The notes beneath the pieces are model-generated. The model was not told the DNA's origin. It made no database searches and saw nothing but the letters and a program-made list of their open reading frames with translations. The position numbers were made by a program, and so were the translations under genes. From Escherichia phage AV126: a DNA stretch of 64,000 nucleotides. Of this stretch, positions 11,311-61,297 are shown in pieces. The stretch lies in sequence record OR352956.1; one strand, given 5' to 3'. Numbering within the stretch: position 1 is the stretch's first letter; every line of letters starts with the position of its first letter.

Positions 11311-11667
11311 ATGAAAAAATTAATCTTAGCCACATTGCTGGCTACCGTAAGCTTCACCACTTACGCTCAAAAATTTGTAGCAGTTAAAACGGATATTGGT
11401 AAAGATGTTGTGATCACAGGCAACAAGTTTTACTATACACCTGGGAATGGTGTTCTAGAAGAGTGCAAAGATGTTGAGGCATATACAGGAAAAGAAGATA
11501 ACACGGAACGTCCTTTTTATTCGATTATAGCTACTTGCAAAAATGAAATAGTAGCTATTAAACAATACAAAGATGCCCCTGGAGGAGAATACTTATTAGT
11601 CAAGAATATTAAGAGTGAAAAAACTGCAAAGTTTACAGTAATTATTTTAAAAGGAGAAACGTTCTAA
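11311..11667 (+). CDS. hypothetical secreted protein (118 aa)
   Basis: ATG at 11311 after GGAGGGAAG; signal-peptide-like MKKLILATLLATVSFTTYA. Confidence 0.55.
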   Translation: MKKLILATLLATVSFTTYAQKFVAVKTDIGKDVVITGNKFYYTPGNGVLEECKDVEAYTGKEDNTERPFYSIIATCKNEIVAIKQYKDAPGGEYLLVKNIKSEKTAKFTVIILKGETF

Positions 11668-12806
11668 TGAAATACACTATTTTTGGAGATGTAGCGGTTG
11701 TAAATAAGGAATATGGCGTTGAAGCTAATAAACTTCCTGCTGGAGTTTGGGTTGTCAACTGCGATCCGCACGGTAACTACTCTTTAGTGCGTGGCGAAAG
11801 TTTCTCTCTTCCGAACACTCTTTATGGGGAAACTAAAGACCGCGCCGCACATGTTATTAAAACATTTGCTCGTCGTAGTAAAGAAGGTAAAAATACTGGG
11901 GTGTTACTGACAGGGACAAAAGGCAGTGGTAAGACGATGTTAGCTAAACTGATTAGCATGTCTCTAATGTCCACAGAAGGTTTAGGTATTCCAACCATTT
12001 TGGTTACACAGCCTTACACAGATGCTGGCTTCTTAGAATTTATGAGTAAAATTACAGATCGTGCTGTTGTTTTATTTGACGAATTTGATAAAGTGTACGC
12101 TAAGAAAGAAGATCAGGAAGCACTGTTGACCTTGTTGGATGGAACAGGAAGTGGGAATAAACTTTACATCCTCACTAAAAATAGTGGTTATATCTCGGAA
12201 TATTTTGTAAACCGTCCTAGTCGTATCTACTACAGTTTCAATTACGATAAACTGTCTAGTGAAACTATGTTAGATTACTTGGATAAGAACTTGGTAAATA
12301 AAAAGCACGTAGATAACTTCCAACGTTTATGGGATGTTAGCACAGAGTTGTCTTTCGATGTTATTCAAGGCATTGTAGAAGAATTGAATTTCTATCCAAA
12401 AATGACTTTTAAAGAATGTCTTGAAATGATGGGTATTTCTTTAGGGAACGATGCTAAATGGAATGTGGCTTCTATCGTAGCTAATGGCAAAACCTTGAAG
12501 GTGAATTGGATCAATAACTGGCACGACTTCACCCCTACTAAGTTTTTGTCGGGTGCTTGTTCCCTGAACATCTATCTACAAAGTTTGAAAGATGATGAAG
12601 TGGAAGCAATGGAAACCAACAGTTATGTTATCCTGGATGAAGATGGTGATCCACATATTGATCTATGTGCAACGGCTGATGGTCTAACTTGTGATCTGAT
12701 TGAAGGTGGTAAGATTCTGGTTATGAGCACTACACCAGGAAACACTTTGCGAGTGGTGCTGGAGCCTGTAACACAACGTTCCACTACACTTGGTAGCGTG
12801 TTCTAA
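11667..12806 (+). CDS. P-loop NTPase (AAA-like ATPase, 379 aa)
   Basis: Walker A GTKGSGKTMLAK and Walker B-like VVLFDEFDK. Confidence 0.6.
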   Translation: MKYTIFGDVAVVNKEYGVEANKLPAGVWVVNCDPHGNYSLVRGESFSLPNTLYGETKDRAAHVIKTFARRSKEGKNTGVLLTGTKGSGKTMLAKLISMSLMSTEGLGIPTILVTQPYTDAGFLEFMSKITDRAVVLFDEFDKVYAKKEDQEALLTLLDGTGSGNKLYILTKNSGYISEYFVNRPSRIYYSFNYDKLSSETMLDYLDKNLVNKKHVDNFQRLWDVSTELSFDVIQGIVEELNFYPKMTFKECLEMMGISLGNDAKWNVASIVANGKTLKVNWINNWHDFTPTKFLSGACSLNIYLQSLKDDEVEAMETNSYVILDEDGDPHIDLCATADGLTCDLIEGGKILVMSTTPGNTLRVVLEPVTQRSTTLGSVF

Positions 12807-12894: not shown

Positions 12895-14355
12895 GTGCCA
12901 AAAATAGTCACTTGGGAACAATATAAAACAGATATAAAACAAGCTTATCAAGGTAAGTCTTGGACTGTTGTAGATTATATTGAGCCGTGGAACGGCAATA
13001 AAACTAAACTTAGATGCATCTGTGCTCTGCATGGAGAATGGAAAACAACAAGCATAAATACCGCTAAACTAGGGAGGGGTTGTCCAGAATGCGGTAGGGA
13101 GATTATAAGTAAAGCAGTATCTATAAACAAATCAAAAACCTGGGAGCAATATAAAGAAGAAGTGCAAACCGCTTACAATCAGGCAGGTAAGTTTTGGACT
13201 GTTACAGGATGGCACGGAGAATGGAAAGGATGGAATACTAAACTGGTTTGTTGTTGTGCTTTACATGGGGAGTGGAGGTCTACTTCTATATCTTCTGCGA
13301 AAAACGGGAGTGGATGCAGGAAGTGTATGGGAGAAGCAAACAGAGAAAGAACATCGATTGCATGGGAGAAACATAAAGAAGAAGTAGAAGAAGCTTATAA
13401 AGAAAAACCCTGGATTGTTAGAGGCTATGTGGAACCGTGGAACGGTTCCCGCACTAAGTTGATTTGTGAGTGTAAGGTTCATGGTCAATGGTGCACTACC
13501 ACTGTAAACAGTGCTAAACAAGGGACTGGATGCTACAGTTGTCAAAGAGAAATGACGAAACAAAGGAATACAATGGAGGATAAACAACATGTTGAAGATT
13601 TTATAAAAGCTTGTCCTGATAATGTAGAGCGTAAATATTATCGTAGCGATAGAGTAGATAGATTAGGTCGTCAGGTTTACTGGATTGTAGAATGTCCTAT
13701 ATGTGCAGAGGATGATTATTGTAAAGAAGGCTTATGCGATAATAAATTTGAGATGAAGATGAGTCATTTGAAAAGGGGTGGCCTTCCTTGCCGTTGTTCT
13801 AAATATTATCATTACACTCCTGAACAATGGGCCTACCGTATGACCAAAGCTTGCCAGGAACGAGGGGATCAATTTATAGGATTCATTGATAAGGTAAGCA
13901 ATAACAGCAAGTTTAAATATCTATGTAGGGAGCATGGAGAGCAAACGATCACACCTACCGATTATCTCAATGGGAAAGGTTGTCCAGGCTGTAAGAACAG
14001 AAATATGCAAGAATTTTACATCAATATTATTCTTGATGAGTACGGAGAAGACACGGGAGCTTACAAGTTGGGGATTGCAAAGGACAGTGATATCAGGATC
14101 AAAGGGCAGAATGCAAACAACAATTACTTTATGCGCCGTATAGCATTGTTCGATCTGCCGTCCTACCAAGCTTGCAGGGCGTTAGAGAGTAAGCTAAAGT
14201 CTAAGACTGATCAGATTCTACCGTCTATTGGCTGTGTAGAACGCTTGCACATGAAAGATGGTCATAGTGAAACCTTCCTGCGCGAGGATTTGGCTATCGT
14301 CTTAAGTGCTATCAACCAAGCAGGTGGAATAATGAGAGAGGAGGAAACATGTTAG
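12895..14355 (+). CDS. protein with tandem Cys/His zinc-ribbon-like repeats (486 aa)
   Basis: GTG start after AAAGGGGGAGG; three or more repeats of a ~70-aa module W..YK..AY....W.V..Y.EPWNG..TKL.C.C..HGEW.TTS.N.AK.G.GC..C. Confidence 0.55.
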   Translation: MPKIVTWEQYKTDIKQAYQGKSWTVVDYIEPWNGNKTKLRCICALHGEWKTTSINTAKLGRGCPECGREIISKAVSINKSKTWEQYKEEVQTAYNQAGKFWTVTGWHGEWKGWNTKLVCCCALHGEWRSTSISSAKNGSGCRKCMGEANRERTSIAWEKHKEEVEEAYKEKPWIVRGYVEPWNGSRTKLICECKVHGQWCTTTVNSAKQGTGCYSCQREMTKQRNTMEDKQHVEDFIKACPDNVERKYYRSDRVDRLGRQVYWIVECPICAEDDYCKEGLCDNKFEMKMSHLKRGGLPCRCSKYYHYTPEQWAYRMTKACQERGDQFIGFIDKVSNNSKFKYLCREHGEQTITPTDYLNGKGCPGCKNRNMQEFYINIILDEYGEDTGAYKLGIAKDSDIRIKGQNANNNYFMRRIALFDLPSYQACRALESKLKSKTDQILPSIGCVERLHMKDGHSETFLREDLAIVLSAINQAGGIMREEETC

Positions 14356-14714
14356 TTGACGTTCAAATTATGCGCAACGAAAGAATGGACTTCTTTGAAG
14401 CAGTAGAGAAACATCTGATCCGATGGGACTATGAATTTGTTCCTGCTGGATGTGGACCAGTAGAGCATTTAGCGGAAGACGACGATGTATACATGATCAT
14501 TCGTCAAGTGTACCAGACAGACCAGTGTGAAGAAACTCCCGAACTGATTTTGTTTGAGTGTAAAGATCTTGCAAAATATTTTGACTATGGCGGAAAAGAG
14601 GGTCATAATCTCTCCAGATACAATAAACGTCTACTTATCTTAGACTACATGCGGAACAACAAACACAAACTCATCGACGCAGACGCAGTTTATGGCTACT
14701 GGTGGATGGACTAA
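14349..14714 (+). CDS. hypothetical protein (121 aa)
   Basis: ORF with GAGGAGG SD. Confidence 0.5.
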   Translation: MLVDVQIMRNERMDFFEAVEKHLIRWDYEFVPAGCGPVEHLAEDDDVYMIIRQVYQTDQCEETPELILFECKDLAKYFDYGGKEGHNLSRYNKRLLILDYMRNNKHKLIDADAVYGYWWMD

Positions 14715-14727
14715 CAAAGGAGAAACT

Positions 14728-14907
14728 ATGGCACGTTTAGCAGATCATGAAATCTTTAAACCTATTCTGAACCACTATGATGAACTTAAAGCAGTGTTGG
14801 ATTGTTATAGAGAGGATGAAGAACGTTTGGAAGTCAATCTTAAGATAGTTCTGATGAAAGCTTTTCAAGACGGGCAAGCTAAAGTTTTAGAAGGCATGAA
14901 AAAATGA
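14728..14907 (+). CDS. hypothetical protein (59 aa)
   Basis: ATG at 14728 after AAGGAGAAA. Confidence 0.45.
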   Translation: MARLADHEIFKPILNHYDELKAVLDCYREDEERLEVNLKIVLMKAFQDGQAKVLEGMKK

Positions 14908-15446
14908 GAATAACTGATGAATATGTATTCTTCTTTTCACATAAAGATGTGTTTAGTAATTGGTATATTGCACCCTTTACAGAAACTGAACTAGGTTACA
15001 ATGAGACTTTCTGTTGTGTTGAGCAATATATGATGTGGCGTAAGGCTTTGCTGTTCAAGGATCATGCGATTGCAGCAGCTATCCTTGATCACTCAACTAT
15101 ACGTGACAACGAGAGGAAACAAGCATACTACAAACGTATGGGTCGAGCGGTATCTGGTTTTAATAATGATATGTGGGAAGAGAACCGTGAGCGTATTGTT
15201 ATGCGAGGCTTATGCTTGAAATATGTACAGAATCCAGATTTGTATGCAGACTTACACCTTTACCAATACAAAACGTTTGTTGAAGCAAGCCCCTACGATA
15301 AGGTTTACGGAATTGGAATGGGGATGTATGAACCAGGGGTGCTAAACCCTGCTACCTGGAAAGGGCAGAATCTTTTAGGCAAATATCATAATAAACTGAT
15401 CGAAATACTTTTCCCAGACAAAATACCGCAAAGACGATATTTGTGA
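14904..15446 (+). CDS. NADAR-domain protein (YbiA/DUF1768-like, 180 aa)
   Basis: FFFSHKDVFSNWY..., CVEQYMMWRKALLF, RMGRAV and C-terminal EASPYDKVYGIGMG match the NADAR pattern. Confidence 0.7.
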   Translation: MRITDEYVFFFSHKDVFSNWYIAPFTETELGYNETFCCVEQYMMWRKALLFKDHAIAAAILDHSTIRDNERKQAYYKRMGRAVSGFNNDMWEENRERIVMRGLCLKYVQNPDLYADLHLYQYKTFVEASPYDKVYGIGMGMYEPGVLNPATWKGQNLLGKYHNKLIEILFPDKIPQRRYL

Positions 15447-15501
15447 TATTTTAACTTTTTTCATTTTTAGAACAAAGGTGTCACTTTGTAGCACAGAAAT
15501 A

Positions 15502-15537
15502 AGGCTCCTACAGCACCGTAGAGAGCCTGTTATTTTG
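15502..15537 (+). terminator. rho-independent terminator candidate
   Basis: AGGCTCCTACAGCACCGTAGAGAGCCT hairpin followed by GTTATTTTG, downstream of NADAR gene. Confidence 0.55.
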
Positions 15538-15670
15538 TCCTATACAAACCCTTGTCTTTTTCAGTTTGCATCACTAGGATTCGATCTGAGTGGGTTCCTG
15601 AAGGTCTGCCAATAAGATTAAAGGTTATCTCAAATTCCCACTACCTATTATCTCAAAAATCCCTCAAATT

Positions 15671-15737
15671 ATTTAAACTTTTTAAGAATTTACAAAAGTG
15701 AAAGTTGAAAACCAAAATTTAAAGTTTAGGAAAAATT
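15671..15737. repeat. ~67-bp AT-rich direct repeat, copy 1
   Basis: ATTTAAACTTTTTAAGAATTTACAAAAGTGAAAGTTGAAAACCAAAATTTAAAGTTTAGGAAAAATT; about 80% identical to copy at 15809-15875. Confidence 0.7.
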
Positions 15738-15808
15738 ATCTTAGAATGTTAGATACAAACAAAACTCAAAAGTCAAGGAAAATTTTAAAAATTTTGCGCG
15801 CCCACAGT

Positions 15809-15875
15809 ATTTAAAGTTTTTTTGCTTTTACAAAAATGAAAGTACAAAAGCAAAATTTAAAGTTTACAAAAATTT
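15809..15875. repeat. ~67-bp AT-rich direct repeat, copy 2
   Basis: ATTTAAAGTTTTTTTGCTTTTACAAAAATGAAAGTACAAAAGCAAAATTTAAAGTTTACAAAAATTT. Confidence 0.7.
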
Positions 15876-15908
15876 ATGCAGGTGGGAATGAGAAGAGTTC
15901 TCATGTGG

Positions 15909-15935
15909 AAATGCAAATGATAATGATTCGCATTT
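15909..15935. promoter_or_regulatory. Fur-box-like palindromic operator
   Basis: AAATGCAAATGATAATGATTCGCATTT; core TGATAATgATTcgCA matches the 7-1-7 Fur consensus TGATAATnATTATCA at 12/14. Confidence 0.45.
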
Positions 15936-15951
15936 AAGTTTATAAACGAGA

Positions 15952-15993
15952 TTGATTCTTATTCAATAAGGTAAATGATAATCATTCTCATTT
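15952..15993 (+). promoter_or_regulatory. sigma70-like promoter overlapped by Fur-box-like operator
   Basis: TTGATT -35, 17-nt spacer, ATGATA/GATAAT -10 region; operator AAATGATAATCATTCTCATTT (13/14 to 7-1-7 Fur consensus) overlaps the -10. Confidence 0.5.
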
Positions 15994-16221
15994 AGAGAAT
16001 GACGCGCAGGGGCGGTGTTTGTCTCGCGCTCCCGTGTCCCCTCGCCATGTAATAAGAATAACAGATCCAACCAGGAAAGCAAGCGATTATTTTATCTTTA
16101 CATTTCTTTACAAATATATAGCGCCCAGCCTACCGGCGATCAACCTTCCAACCAGCGCCCCTGGTATGTTAGCCCCGCCTTTACGCCGTGGGGTGGCGCT
16201 TCCTCTTCTGTATGTAAAACA

Positions 16222-16262
16222 GTATAAGCCCGATCCCTGGGCTTGTCAAGATTATTTTTTGT
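16222..16262. terminator. hairpin plus T-run (possible bidirectional terminator)
   Basis: AAGCCCGATCCCTGGGCTT then GTCAAGATTATTTTTTGTTTTC; just beyond stop of minus ORF 16252..16518; minus sense also reads TTGACA-17-TATACT. Confidence 0.4.
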
Positions 16263-16518
16263 TTTCTTGCCAGGATAGGACACCTAACCAAAAATGCATA
16301 TCGCCCCGCGCCGCTGGCGGGATCTTGCTTTCCCCGCCGCCACTGCAAGCCCATAAATAACCATCAGCAAACGGATCAAAATGTTCTATCTCTTCCACTT
16401 TATGATCGCCCAGGTTGAGAACGGTTTCAACCTTTAAGCCCGTTGCGCTTGCTACCTGGTGCACCGTGCCGCCTTGCCAGCCCAATGAGTGCATAAGGTG
16501 TAATGTAGTATTTGTCAT
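16252..16518 (-). CDS. hypothetical protein (88 aa) in GC-rich island
   Basis: Only minus-strand ORF in the plus-oriented region; GC-rich codon usage unlike flanks; GGCGATACC upstream of ATG. Confidence 0.45.
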   Translation of the reverse strand: MTNTTLHLMHSLGWQGGTVHQVASATGLKVETVLNLGDHKVEEIEHFDPFADGYLWACSGGGESKIPPAARGDMHFWLGVLSWQENKK

Positions 16519-16626
16519 GGTATCGCCCTTTCTTTGATGTGCGCCCTGGTTGGCGCGGTAGAAAGATAATAGCCCTTTTCTTTATATATAGCAAGCAAAA
16601 AGAAAATAAAAAAGATTGAAAAATGG

Positions 16627-16686
16627 TTGACGTTAACCAGGCGGCGGCGTAGTATTCATCTTATAGGGCGGCAATGGTGCCGCTCA
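16627..16686 (+). promoter_or_regulatory. PeSL-like cassette 1
   Basis: TTGACG / TAGTAT / hairpin GGGCGGCAATGGTGCCGCTC; ORF at 16705. Confidence 0.55.
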
Positions 16687-45012: not shown

Positions 45013-45813
45013 TTATTTGTTTAAATGGTCTTCAACCATTTTGATAAAGCCTTCATCACTGAAGACTGTTCCTGCTTTCTCTCGGTAGACAAGCACTCCA
45101 CGTTCTTCGTAGAGAGTTTGTTCTACAAAATTCAAACCTGGGTTAACTACTACCATCTTAACCCCAATATTCAGGGCAGGGAAGAGTTCCCAGTTGAAGT
45201 TGATTACTTGGTTAGAGCAGCCTACAACGATAACCATATCTTGTGATGTTAGTTGATCCAGTTTGTGATACATGTCTGTGTAGAGTGGTGCATTCTCACC
45301 AAAAAACACCACATTAGGCTTCACATATTTGTAATCGTCTACATCAATAGCTGCGTAACCCACATCTTTGATAATTTTGTTATCAACAACAACTTCTGGC
45401 AAGAAGCCATGAACGTGCAATATTTCTTCTCTATCGATTCCAGCGCGTTCTAATAGATCGTCAACGTTAGTAGTAATGTTAATAATCCTTTCTGCACCGT
45501 ATTTTTCGAACCATTCTCCAATCTGAAGATGTGCTGGATTCGGGTCAACTTTCTCTAATTCCACGCGACGTTTATTGTAGAAGTCGTGAGTTTTACGGTA
45601 GAGGTTATATCCTTCCACATCTAAGCCACCCATAGCATCAGGAATACCCTGTTCTTGCTGATAACCGTCACGGAAGTTGAAAATGTCACAGACTTCTGTT
45701 AAATCGTATTCATCCCATAATGCCTTTCCAGAATCTGTTTCTGTGCGAAATGTTTGGATTCCGCTGTCAGCACTTAGTCCCGCACCACTAATAAAATATA
45801 CACGTCTTGGCAT
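45013..45813 (-). CDS. Sir2-family NAD-dependent protein (sirtuin-like, 266 aa)
   Basis: GAGLSADSGIQTFR (Rossmann NAD motif), TTNVDDLLERAG...HVHG (catalytic His), PNVVFFGE, IVVGCSNQV; no CxxC zinc-ribbon pairs. Confidence 0.75.
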   Translation of the reverse strand: MPRRVYFISGAGLSADSGIQTFRTETDSGKALWDEYDLTEVCDIFNFRDGYQQEQGIPDAMGGLDVEGYNLYRKTHDFYNKRRVELEKVDPNPAHLQIGEWFEKYGAERIINITTNVDDLLERAGIDREEILHVHGFLPEVVVDNKIIKDVGYAAIDVDDYKYVKPNVVFFGENAPLYTDMYHKLDQLTSQDMVIVVGCSNQVINFNWELFPALNIGVKMVVVNPGLNFVEQTLYEERGVLVYREKAGTVFSDEGFIKMVEDHLNK

Positions 45814-57758: not shown

Positions 57759-58019
57759 TTACTCCGCAATTTGAGCCATGAGATCACGCAGTTCGGTAAA
57801 ACCGCCTACGTATGTTACCTCCCCGTTCACTTCAGACAGAATTTGTGGAAATGTGCGTGGAGGAACTCCGGTAAGATCAACAACTGTTTTAGTCATTGAT
57901 TCTAAATCGTAGTCTTGGTCAAGACTTAAATATTCAAACTGTTTATTGCGCATGGTTAATAGTTGTTTTGACATTTCACAAAATTGACAGTTAGGTTTAC
58001 CAAAAATTACAAATTCCAT
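57759..58019 (-). CDS. glutaredoxin-like thioredoxin (NrdC/NrdH-like, 86 aa)
   Basis: N-terminal active site GKPNCQFC (CxxC) in glutaredoxin-fold-sized protein; GGAG SD. Confidence 0.7.
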   Translation of the reverse strand: MEFVIFGKPNCQFCEMSKQLLTMRNKQFEYLSLDQDYDLESMTKTVVDLTGVPPRTFPQILSEVNGEVTYVGGFTELRDLMAQIAE

Positions 58020-58861
58020 TACCTCTCCTTATTAAGTAATACTGCTAAAGACTGTTCAATACCTTTATTTAAATCTGATTTTGTAAGATAGTGACTGGTT
58101 ACTAGTTGTGACTTCACCGGACGTGCTGCTGGAGCATTATAGGTTGAAGCTGATACCGCCGATATCTTAACAGGTTCTGGCATCTGTGTCAAGATCTTTT
58201 CCGCAAACTCCGCCCAAGAAATAAGATGGCTTCCTGCAAAATGGTAAGTCTTAACAGATCTTGACCAACCTGTTTTTAATACTTCAAAAATAGCTTCTGC
58301 TAAATCTGGGGCATATGTTGGACAAGAGAACTGATCAGCAACAATAATAAAATCACGTTGTCCATCATTATAGCGAGACAACATGGTTTTTAGAAAGTTA
58401 TTTCCAAATTCGCTATATACCGAGGCTGTTCGAATAATATATGCATTTGGGTTAACTCCTCGCACCATTTTTTCACCAAGTTCTTTCGTATACCCATAAT
58501 TGTTTATTGGGTTAGGTGTAGTATCTTCAAAAATAGGATGAGAATAATTAAAAATATAGTCTGTAGAAATATGCACAAAATCAATTTTAAGTTTGCTGCA
58601 CACTGCCGCAATATTTGCAGGTCCATACGCATTAACAGCCAAAGCAGTAGCAAATTCATGTTCTGCTTTATCTACCGCCGTATAAGCGGCGCAATTAATA
58701 ACACCATCTACATAATCTTCAACAATAGCGTTTCGCACAGCTTCAAAATTTGTAATATCTACACGTTCTTTAGGATAAATTAAAGATACATTTGCAGGGG
58801 CAACTTTACGTAAAGCTTGTCCCAGTTGTCCATTACCACCCAATACCAAATATGTTAGCAT
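58019..58861 (-). CDS. rmlD: dTDP-4-dehydrorhamnose reductase (RmlD, 280 aa)
   Basis: N-terminal Rossmann LVLGGNGQLGQAL; size and operon position after rmlC. Confidence 0.75.
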   Translation of the reverse strand: MLTYLVLGGNGQLGQALRKVAPANVSLIYPKERVDITNFEAVRNAIVEDYVDGVINCAAYTAVDKAEHEFATALAVNAYGPANIAAVCSKLKIDFVHISTDYIFNYSHPIFEDTTPNPINNYGYTKELGEKMVRGVNPNAYIIRTASVYSEFGNNFLKTMLSRYNDGQRDFIIVADQFSCPTYAPDLAEAIFEVLKTGWSRSVKTYHFAGSHLISWAEFAEKILTQMPEPVKISAVSASTYNAPAARPVKSQLVTSHYLTKSDLNKGIEQSLAVLLNKER

Positions 58862-59421
58862 ACACCCTCGCTACGTAACTGTTGAAAAGATTTAGCCATT
58901 GCATCTTTTGTTGATAGGATAGGTTTAAAACCTTCATCAAAAATCATATCGAAGCCCCAATCGATCCCTATATCAGGATCATCCCAACGTAAACTTTGTT
59001 CACTAGAAGAGTCGTATGGAGTTGTGCATTTGTATTCAAAGATAGCATCCATACTCAAAACTATAAAACCATGTGCCAAACCAGGTGGAAGCCAAAACTG
59101 CGTATGGTGTCGTGCACGAAGAACAACACCGTCCCAAGCACCGTAAGTAGGACTATCTTTACGTAAGTCTACAGCGAAATCCAATACTTCACCACTTACA
59201 CAACGAACAAGCTTACCTTGCGGATTATTTGTTTGAAAGTGCATTCCTCGCAAAACACCGAAGTTTGATTTAGACATGTTATCTTGAACGAAAGTTTGTC
59301 TACCAATAATATCTTCGTATTTTTGTTCATTATATGTTTCTAAAAAGAAACCACGGTCATCTTTATAAACGTCTGGTTTGATAATTACCGCACCTTCAAT
59401 TTTTGTCTTTTCTACTTTCAT
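58855..59421 (-). CDS. rmlC: dTDP-4-dehydrorhamnose 3,5-epimerase (RmlC, about 188 aa)
   Basis: ATG 59421 after GGAGAGAAA; cupin-type RmlC sequence (GVLRGMHFQ...); ORF-track 5' extension overlaps rmlA. Confidence 0.75.
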
Positions 59422-60296
59422 TTTCTCTCCGCTAATTTGAGTAGGTATTGCCCGTACTCTGTTTTCTTCAGTGAGTTTCCATGATATACCAAAGTCTCTA
59501 AAGAAATCCACCCTTTTTTGAAAGCAATTTCTTCCAGGCACGCAATCTTCAACCCTTGACGGTTCTCAATAGTCTGCACGAATTGACCAGCTTCCATCAG
59601 ACTGGCGTGTGTTCCTGTGTCAAGCCAAGTAAATCCTCGTCCGAGAACTTCCACTTGTAACTTCCTGTCTTCGAGGTAGCTGCGATTGATATCTGTGATC
59701 TCCAGTTCTCCCCGCGCGGAAGGGGTTACTTCTAATGCACGTTCAACAACAGAGTTATCATAGAAATACAAACCTGTGACAGCATAATCTGATTTAGGAT
59801 TTTCAGGTTTCTCTTCAATAGAAATAGCTTGACGATTACTCCCAAATTCAACCACACCGAATCGTTCAGGATCTTTCACCAAATACCCGAAGATACAAGC
59901 TCCGCCACAAACATCTACCATCTCACTGGCGTTAATCAGTAGTTTACCAAAGCTTTGTCCGAAGAATAGGTTGTCACCTAAAATAAGAGCAACAGAGTCT
60001 TCTCCGATAAAATCTTTACCGATGATGAAAGCGTCCGCAAGACCTCGTGGCTCGGATTGGATTGCGTAAGTGAGTTTTATCCCAAACATAGACCCATCTC
60101 CGAGAAGATACTCAAAGTCTTCCTGATCGCCTGGTGTGGTGATGATTAAGATATCCTTAATGTCAGCCAACATCAATACCGATAAAGGGTAGTAGATCAT
60201 GGGTTTGTCATACACAGGGAGCAATTGCTTGCTCACACTGCGTGTTACCGGATGAAGGCGGGTTCCACTTCCTCCCGCCAAAATAATACCTTTCAT
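59418..60296 (-). CDS. rmlA: glucose-1-phosphate thymidylyltransferase (RmlA, about 292 aa)
   Basis: ATG 60296 after GGAG; [18 protein letters not shown]...VEFGSN...VTGLYFYD typical of RmlA. Confidence 0.85.
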
Positions 60297-60304
60297 AGCC
60301 CTCC

Positions 60305-61297
60305 TTAAATCTTCCCACTCCACCATTGAGGGTTGTTTAAGTACCATTCAATCGTTGAGTAGAGATCTTGTTCAAATGTAGAGTTTGCACTCCAACCCAG
60401 TTCAGACTCTATTTTAGAAGGATTGATTTCATAACGCAAGTCATGTCCTTTACGATCTTCAACAAAAGTTATCAAGTTGGAAGAAGGGTAGGTTCCTGCT
60501 TCTGGATGTACAGCATCCATGTAGTCACAAACCATATAGATGATCTCCATATTGGTTTTGGGATTACGTGTTCCAACATTATACGTTTGACCTGGTTCTC
60601 CACCTGTTGCCACTTGAAGAATAGCTCGCGCATGATCCTCAACAAAAAGCCAGTCTCGCACCTGATCGCCTTTACCATACACCGGAATCTCTTTATTCGT
60701 CAAGATACTTGTGATGATTTTTGGGATCAGCTTTTCTGGATGTTGATAAGGTCCAAAGTTATTGGAGCAGTTGGTTATCACAACAGGTAAACCGTAGGTA
60801 CGGTACCAAGCTTTCACAAGATGGTCAGATGCTGCCTTAGACGCACTGTACGGGCTTGAAGGGGCATAAGCTGTCTCTTCGGTAAAGGGAACGCCAGAGT
60901 CTGCCATATCGCCGTACACTTCGTCTGTGGAGACGTGTACGAACATCTTCAGTTTATTTTTTGGGAGGAGCCTTGCAGCTTCCAATAAATTGTATGTGCC
61001 AATAATATTGGAGTCGATGAAAACTCGTGGATTCTTGATAGAATTATCCACATGACTCTCTGCCGCTAAGTGAATGATGAAATCGGGATTGCACTCTACT
61101 ACTAAACTTTTGACCTGGGTTTCGTTTGCCAAATCTGTTATGCTTAGTTTAACGTGAGTGATATCGCCTACATTCTCAATATCTGCTGCATAGCCCATCT
61201 TATCAACGACAAAAACTTCGTTATTGGGATCTTGACAAAGAGAGCGCACCACGGCACTCCCAATAAAACCAAGACCACCTGTTACCAGATAGCGCAT
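60305..61297 (-). CDS. rmlB: dTDP-glucose 4,6-dehydratase (RmlB, 330 aa)
   Basis: [16 protein letters not shown], ...HLAAESHVD..., YSASKAA (YxxxK) SDR motifs. Confidence 0.85.

Follow-up and report, generated by a model that had tools for sequence, protein, structure and literature searches.

The window analysed here is a stretch of 64,000 nucleotides (nt) from Escherichia phage AV126 (sequence record OR352956.1). The gene at positions 14,904 to 15,446 encodes a protein of 180 amino acids (aa), the sole NADAR-domain protein of the window, and many stop codons are found on the opposite strand. The surrounding 4 kb shows 98-99% identity to many Phapecoctavirus genomes (phAPEC8-like, Stephanstirmvirinae). 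A preliminary reading of the DNA, made from its letters without database searches (the sequence-only reading), had described the product as a YbiA-like NADAR protein on the basis of three pattern motifs. All three were located in the translated open reading frame (ORF): FFFSHKDVFSNWY at residues 9-21, RMGRAV at residues 78-83 and EASPYDKVYGIGMG at residues 127-140.

Profile searches and structure prediction bear out the assignment to this family. The protein has the conserved domain PF08719 (NADAR, DUF1768; E-value: 3.9e-35), with a score of 121.9 bits, where the gathering score is 35.1. The match includes positions 3-154 of the 163 in the profile and spans residues 11-161 of the 180 in the protein, and this is the only Pfam domain found. 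The protein also matches PHROG_1017 (E-value: 3.9e-51), a family labelled 'unknown function', and, at the sequence level, PDB 8BAU, the NADAR/ADP-ribose (ADPr) complex of Phytophthora nicotianae (E-value: 1.5e-12). When a profile of the clade to which the phage protein belongs was compared with solved structures, 8BAU (124.6 bits) and E. coli YbiA (2B3W, 64 bits) were matched and no others. An AlphaFold2 model, for which 83 homologs served as input, has a predicted local distance difference test score of 95.2 and a predicted template modelling score of 0.89. This model has a YbiA-like alpha-helical core with small flanking beta-sheets, and in a Foldseek comparison with the PDB its only significant fold matches are 8BAU (template modelling [TM] score 0.78) and 2B3W (TM score 0.66). 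By profile and by predicted fold, the 180-aa protein is clearly a member of the NADAR superfamily.

In the P. nicotianae enzyme (PnNADAR), ADPr is contacted by residues E43, K50, K75, R79, Y84, D86, W89, R93, E125, D130 and W133 (Schuller et al. 2023, PMC11543638). Using a HMMER alignment to 8BAU (whose chain numbering is that of the paper plus 2) and a multiple alignment, these residues were mapped to E40, K47, K77, R81, F86, N88, W91, R95, E127, D132 and Y135 of the phage protein, respectively. All of the contact residues are conserved or conservatively replaced, and K77, R81, F86, W91, R95 and D132 are scored as conserved with respect to 8BAU. The E40/K47 pair, which forms the E-x6-K motif, has its counterparts in E43/K50 of PnNADAR, E88/K95 of E. 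coli C7 DarG1 and E36/K43 of the phage T4 protein AdfN^T4. When the counterparts of E43, K50 and E125 were mutated in E. coli C7 DarG1, they proved necessary both for the removal of ADPr from guanine and for the antitoxin function (PMC11543638). In AdfN^T4, hydrolysis is required against DarT1 toxicity and an active-site mutation abolishes function (PMC11825919). Across the 83 homologs, E40, K47, G80, W91, E127, S129, P130 and D132 are unchanged. E40, K47 and E127 match the catalytic residues of NADARs that have been solved and mutagenised, and the alignments show an intact active site.

The closest characterized relative of this protein is found in the BASEL phages Bas60-62, which encode the NADAR protein AdfN^Bas60 (Johannesman et al., Nat Commun 2025, PMC11825919). 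In uninfected E. coli, AdfN^Bas60 neutralises the toxicity of DarT1. With its help, RB69, T5 and Bas25 regain the ability to plate on DarTG1 hosts, while DarTG2 is not countered (PMC11825919). Bas60 (Escherichia phage PaulScherrer, MZ501100.1) is a phi92-like Justusliebigvirus, a member of a sister genus in the same subfamily. A tblastn search and a six-frame hidden Markov model search of bases 1-150000 of the 150425 in its genome identified exactly one NADAR gene, bas60_0111 (QXV83846.1), which is equated with AdfN^Bas60 by virtue of being the only NADAR of Bas60. The two proteins are 55% identical over 172 aa (E-value: 3e-66) and are of similar length (180 aa in AV126, 183 aa in Bas60). They share an N-terminus of the form MRITD...FFFS, the E/K/E active site, an insertion at residues ~62-75 and a long loop at residues 137-155, and in each phage the NADAR is the only one present. 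They differ in 45% of their residues, and 7 residues are inserted after residue 27 in the Bas60 protein. The gene order is common to both genera and consists of an AAA ATPase, a CapR-repeat protein, the NADAR and a conserved intergenic block. The CapR-repeat protein, the upstream NADAR neighbour kept in both genera, is 35% identical to bas60_0110, although AV126 alone has 121-aa and 59-aa genes between this protein and the NADAR. Because of the 55% identity, the homologous upstream neighbour and the shared gene order, the AV126 gene is, as judged by sequence and synteny, the positional ortholog of a validated anti-DarTG1 factor. The proposal in the sequence-only reading that this is a candidate counter-defence gene therefore has a syntenic precedent with demonstrated activity against DarT1 and DarTG1 (PMC11825919).

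The NADAR types differ at the third catalytic position. Because the phage protein has Glu here, it is neither of the DarG1 type, in which Asp is found, nor of the T4-phage type, which has His. DarG1 (BC4488 subfamily) resembles the phage protein in its superfamily and in its presumed hydrolysis of ADPr on the N2 of guanine, but its third site is an Asp, its N-terminus is extended by beta1-beta2-alpha1 and darT1 lies next to its gene. None of these features applies to the phage protein, which in the model starts directly at core strand beta1. With a Glu at the position equivalent to D171, no DarT neighbour and no N-terminal extension, membership in the DarG1 group was rejected; the clade profile likewise detected none of the DarG1 structures at an E-value of 1 or below. 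AdfN^T4 (T4 gp30.3) likewise comes from a phage, is an orphan NADAR and carries the E-x6-K motif, and its anti-DarTG1 function is proven (PMC11825919). However, its similarity to the phage protein is negligible (BLASTP E-value: 1.6) and it has a His in place of E127, and for these reasons membership in the T4-type AdfN group was rejected as well. A phmmer search of the window with gp30.3 returned no match. AdfN^T4 depends on a T-even-specific factor (PMC11825919), and the T4 NADAR and DarG1 cannot remove cytidine-ADPr (C-ADPr; PMC12945103).

PnNADAR, which hydrolyses guanine-ADPr (G-ADPr; PMC11543638), differs from the phage protein in overall sequence (~26-32% identity), in its eukaryotic origin, in having N-terminal and internal extensions of its own and in W133 and D86, which are replaced by Y135 and N88. 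AdfN^Bas60 groups with non-YbiA bacterial NADARs (PMC11825919), and by sequence and model the phage protein likewise sits with the general NADARs, which are neither of the YbiA nor of the DarG1 type. Its nearest relatives from cellular organisms, at 40-48% identity, are NADARs that stand alone, and those of Burkholderia lie among phage-like genes. A toxin neighbour was sought beside these bacterial relatives, including the Kofleriaceae copy, and none was found.

Taken with the orthology, these features suggest that the protein is probably an orphan antitoxin-like guanine-ADPr glycohydrolase of the AdfN class that acts in counter-defence against DarTG1. Both the proposed substrate (G-ADPr on DNA) and the proposed role are deduced from what is established for the ortholog and, biochemically, for other NADARs; all NADAR families that have been assayed hydrolyse G-ADPr in vitro (PMC12945103). 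No ADP-ribosyltransferase (ART) and no toxin recognised by PADLOC was found among the neighbours of the gene (the AAA ATPase, the CapR-repeat protein and small ORFs), and by its surroundings the gene is an orphan, with no cognate DarT or ART beside it.

The mechanism that we propose would operate as follows. In DarTG1-positive E. coli, the DarT1 toxin would ADP-ribosylate guanines of the phage DNA at their N2 amino group, and this modification would block phage replication. In the NADAR protein, the phosphates of ADPr are predicted to be held by K47, K77, R81, W91 and R95, while F86 would stack on the adenine, with the distal ribose held by E40 and E127. The enzyme would then hydrolyse the N-glycosidic bond between ribose and guanine, such that unmodified DNA is regenerated and replication can resume.

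Several points weigh against this interpretation. An identity of 55% to AdfN^Bas60 would not guarantee equal specificity in vivo. In vitro, E. coli YbiA and T4 gp30.3 hydrolyse G-ADPr, but neither rescues uninfected cells from DarT1. Activity on G-ADPr in vitro is common to all NADAR families, yet protection in vivo is lineage-specific. The N-terminal extension that is a proposed DNA binder in DarG1 is absent from the phage protein. A sigma-70 promoter scan gave a site count no higher than the shuffled expectation. Finally, the protein passes the cutoff of TIGR02464, a model for riboflavin-related enzymes that is discussed below, although AdfN^Bas60 and PnNADAR pass it equally.

Variation within Phapecoctavirus counts in favour of the counter-defence interpretation and also bears on what the enzyme might act upon. 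Compared with its counterpart in Phapecoctavirus tuntematon (1417-1959 of the compared locus), the NADAR gene has 88.8% nt identity, and the flanking ORFs have ~98%. The proteins differ at 17 positions, all of which fall in residues 30-90, and their C-terminal halves are identical; the dN/dS ratio between the two alleles is 0.16. This pattern indicates a mosaic, recombinant allele that is under purifying selection and forms a local divergence hotspot. Frequent exchange of this kind would fit a host-interaction gene, but it is not diagnostic of one.

It is conceivable, though unlikely, that the protein is a de-ADP-ribosylase whose main natural substrate is something other than DarT1-modified DNA guanine, such as C-ADPr, ADP-ribosylated guanosine in RNA or the products of other defence-associated ARTs, for instance YarT-like or pierisin-like toxins. 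The allelic differences would be consistent with this, in that they cluster next to the adenine/phosphate-binding loop, as would a 120-bit match to the PADLOC candidate-system component PDC-M42C. The phage protein also groups with the general NADAR family, with 8BAU as its best PDB match, and NADARs of this family, unlike DarG1 and the T4 NADAR, remove C-ADPr from both DNA and RNA (PMC12945103). Broader NADAR targets have been proposed by Johannesman et al. (PMC11825919). Against this, the only functional data for the lineage, those for AdfN^Bas60, concern the reversal of DarTG1 activity. To our knowledge, no other ART defence that targets guanine or cytosine occurs in the E. coli hosts of these phages. 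A different main substrate would be compatible with the preferred explanation, an AdfN-class enzyme that counters DarTG1. More speculatively, and with rather little likelihood, the protein may be a broad nucleic acid de-ADP-ribosylase that acts on G-ADPr and C-ADPr in DNA and RNA, with the exchanged segment at residues 30-90 tracking varied host ART defences. If this is true, the segment would follow the ART defences of E. coli and Klebsiella hosts, some of which are perhaps undiscovered.

A housekeeping role of the YbiA type, in which the protein would be an N-glycosidase that destroys reactive riboflavin intermediates (5-amino-6-ribosylamino-uracil derivatives), is very improbable. The resemblance to E. 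coli YbiA lies in the fold, in the Glu at the third catalytic position, which is typical of the YbiA subfamily, and in TIGR02464 ('riboflavin biosynthesis intermediates N-glycosidase'), whose cutoff of 73.7 bits is passed by both proteins, with 114.8 bits for the phage protein. However, controls showed that this model does not separate general from YbiA-type NADARs, as AdfN^Bas60 scores 109.4, PnNADAR 117.6 and genuine YbiA 169.5, and the match was dropped as evidence for a riboflavin function. YbiA itself has a housekeeping riboflavin role, its gene belongs to an operon under LexA control, and it gives no rescue from DarT1 toxicity. A YbiA-type placement was rejected because the phage protein is only 29% identical to YbiA over 96 aa and its clade profile scores nearly twice as high on 8BAU. 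The label 'YbiA-like' in the sequence-only reading consequently holds for the Glu-type active site and not for closeness to YbiA. Riboflavin genes were not found among the scanned proteins of the window, and the demonstrated function of the ortholog is defence-related.

The names given to this gene in databases also point towards riboflavin. GenBank records of Phapecoctavirus list it either as 'hypothetical protein / DUF1768' or, in many cases, as 'GTP cyclohydrolase II', the latter in the form 'COG3236 / GTP cyclohydrolase II'. The 180-aa protein consists entirely of NADAR, the single domain that Pfam recognises, and has no RibA domain. On this domain content, 'GTP cyclohydrolase II' is an annotation artefact that stems from the name 'COG3236 / GTP cyclohydrolase II' of a fusion protein.

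Equally hard to sustain is a non-enzymatic role, in which the protein would bind ADPr and so block an NAD+-hydrolysing defence. Another phage NADAR has been reported as an inhibitor of Retron-Eco1 (Carabias et al. 2024, cited by Johannesman et al., PMC11825919). The ADPr-binding pocket of the AV126 protein is fully conserved, which speaks for such a role. The Retron-Eco1 inhibitor of the Carabias study is said to be U56, which reportedly binds ADPr. However, the invariance of the three catalytic residues among the 83 homologs argues for selection on catalysis, and the ortholog acts on DarT1 toxicity, against which AdfN^T4 needs hydrolysis.

Phapecoctaviruses are broad-host-range phages of E. 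coli and Klebsiella that are often proposed for therapy (such as 536_P1, ZCKP1 and the ESCO phages). A probable anti-DarTG1 enzyme would help in forecasting their host range among DarTG1-positive strains. The present assignment corrects the widespread 'GTP cyclohydrolase II' annotation and extends the AdfN^Bas60 lineage to a sister genus. More distant homologs carry the lineage further, into hundreds of large myoviruses that infect Staphylococcus, Listeria, Enterococcus, Bacillus and Klebsiella. In a literature search, no paper devoted to the Phapecoctavirus NADAR itself came up. The NADAR family, its chemistry and its role in phage counter-defence are already published, and experiments on the closest ortholog exist. 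No new question is opened here, as the mechanism and the counter-defence role appeared in print between 2023 and 2025.

The features of the locus are listed in Table 1. The TGA of the 59-aa gene overlaps the ATG of the NADAR gene (ATGA, 14904-14907), and because of this overlap translational coupling of the two genes within one operon is probable. A Shine-Dalgarno-like GAAGG precedes the NADAR ATG and, together with the overlap, suggests that the NADAR gene is the last gene of a short plus-strand operon. The operon starts with the CapR-repeat gene, after the terminator of the ATPase gene. The CapR-repeat protein contains five tandem CapR homology domains, which are Zn-ribbon-like CxxC...C repeats. 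A hairpin begins 56 nt past the NADAR stop codon and, with the T-run behind it, is probably an intrinsic terminator that closes the operon, although it was not picked up by a simple terminator scan. Directly upstream of the operon, a gene at 11667-12806 (+) encodes a 379-aa AAA+ ATPase (PHROG_2376). This protein has weak matches to STAND-type NTPase models and to PADLOC mad8, and its Bas60 counterpart is annotated as an 'FtsH-like protease'.

Table 1. Features of the NADAR locus in phage AV126 (positions are those of the 64,000-nt window)
Feature	Position	Strand	Basis or remarks
CapR-repeat protein gene, first in operon order; 486 aa, annotated 'endonuclease'	12895..14355	+	Pfam PF21817 in five stretches, PHROG_681
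Second gene in operon order	14349..14714	+
59-aa gene, third in operon order; PHROG_22330, unknown function	14728..14907	+	Annotated in relatives
NADAR-domain protein gene, fourth in operon order; 180 aa + stop	14904..15446	+	ATG-started ORF, Pfam, AlphaFold, Foldseek, identity to bas60_0111
E-x6-K catalytic/phosphate-binding motif 'EQYMMWRK'	E40 codon 15021-15023 to K47 codon 15042-15044	+	Alignments
'EASPYD', from E127 (third catalytic acid) to D132 (equivalent of PnNADAR D130)	15282..15299	+	Alignments
Hairpin (9 bp, one bulge, 6-nt loop) followed by T-run; probable terminator	15503..15540	+	Folding energy -19.6 kcal/mol, z = -5.5
Non-coding core, ~90 nt; candidate element	~16125-16215, flanks 16095-16262	+	~680 nt downstream of the NADAR gene, usually unannotated
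88-aa ORF; PHROG_19316, unknown function	16252..16518	-	95% identity to bas60_0113

The stretch after the NADAR gene (15447-16626) is 1.18 kb long and of unusual make-up. It includes an AT-rich part at ~15600-15994 (26% GC) that contains a pair of 75-nt direct repeats (15665-15739 and 15803-15877, 81% identical), both copies of which hold a promoter-like TTTACA-N18-CAAAAT site. These are followed at 15887-15994 by three units with a period of 29 nt that form palindromes resembling AATGAGAATCATT and are annotated as a 'repeat_region' in phage tuntematon. The AT-rich repeats may serve as an origin or as a regulatory array. Next to them is a GC-rich block at ~15985-16640 (48-55% GC, compared with ~40% nearby). 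The nt identity of this block between Phapecoctavirus and Justusliebigvirus is 92-98%, and the identity of the flanking proteins is 35-55%. Several GenBank annotations omit the 88-aa ORF on the minus strand of the block. This ORF converges on the core described below, and a bidirectional-looking hairpin at 16226-16244 is common to both.

The ~90-nt core was found in 226 phage records, from Stephanstirmvirinae and several genera of Vequintavirinae, with hosts in Escherichia, Klebsiella, Salmonella, Cronobacter, Pectobacterium, Enterobacter and Serratia. One Mydovirus carries its copy within the tRNA gene cluster. In a comparison of 14 diverse copies, the tract CUACCGGCGAU is near-invariant (one substitution in 3 of the copies), GUUAGCCCCGCC...CGCCGUGGGG is invariant but for one loop position, and CTACCGGCGAT and GTTAGCCCCGCCTTTACGCCGTGGGGTGGCG are invariant or nearly so. 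Pairing in a variable hairpin between the tracts is kept by compensatory changes, with the pair at the foot of the hairpin being A:U in half of the copies (7/14) and G:C in the other half (7/14), and RNAalifold gave an alternative long-range stem. A closing stem noticed by eye (GCUACC/GGUGGC) was rejected, as a one-sided change carried by phiTE and POP17 breaks the pairing, and single-sequence folding energies of the core are no better than those of shuffled sequences. Searches with the core in Rfam, for tRNAs (ARAGORN) and in E. coli gave no match, and its identification as a tRNA (on the Rfam and ARAGORN results) or as host mimicry (on the E. coli result) was discarded. The core may be a small RNA, an origin or a protein-binding site.

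Elsewhere in the window, a gene at 45013-45813 (-) encodes a SIR2-family protein (PF02146, 74.5 bits), a further NAD+-linked enzyme of the phage. Bas60 carries a sirtuin, a macrodomain protein and NAMPT/PRPP-synthetase genes. A complete dTDP-rhamnose pathway (homologs of RmlD, RmlC, RmlA and RmlB) is encoded at 58019-61297 (-), as in phi92-like phages.

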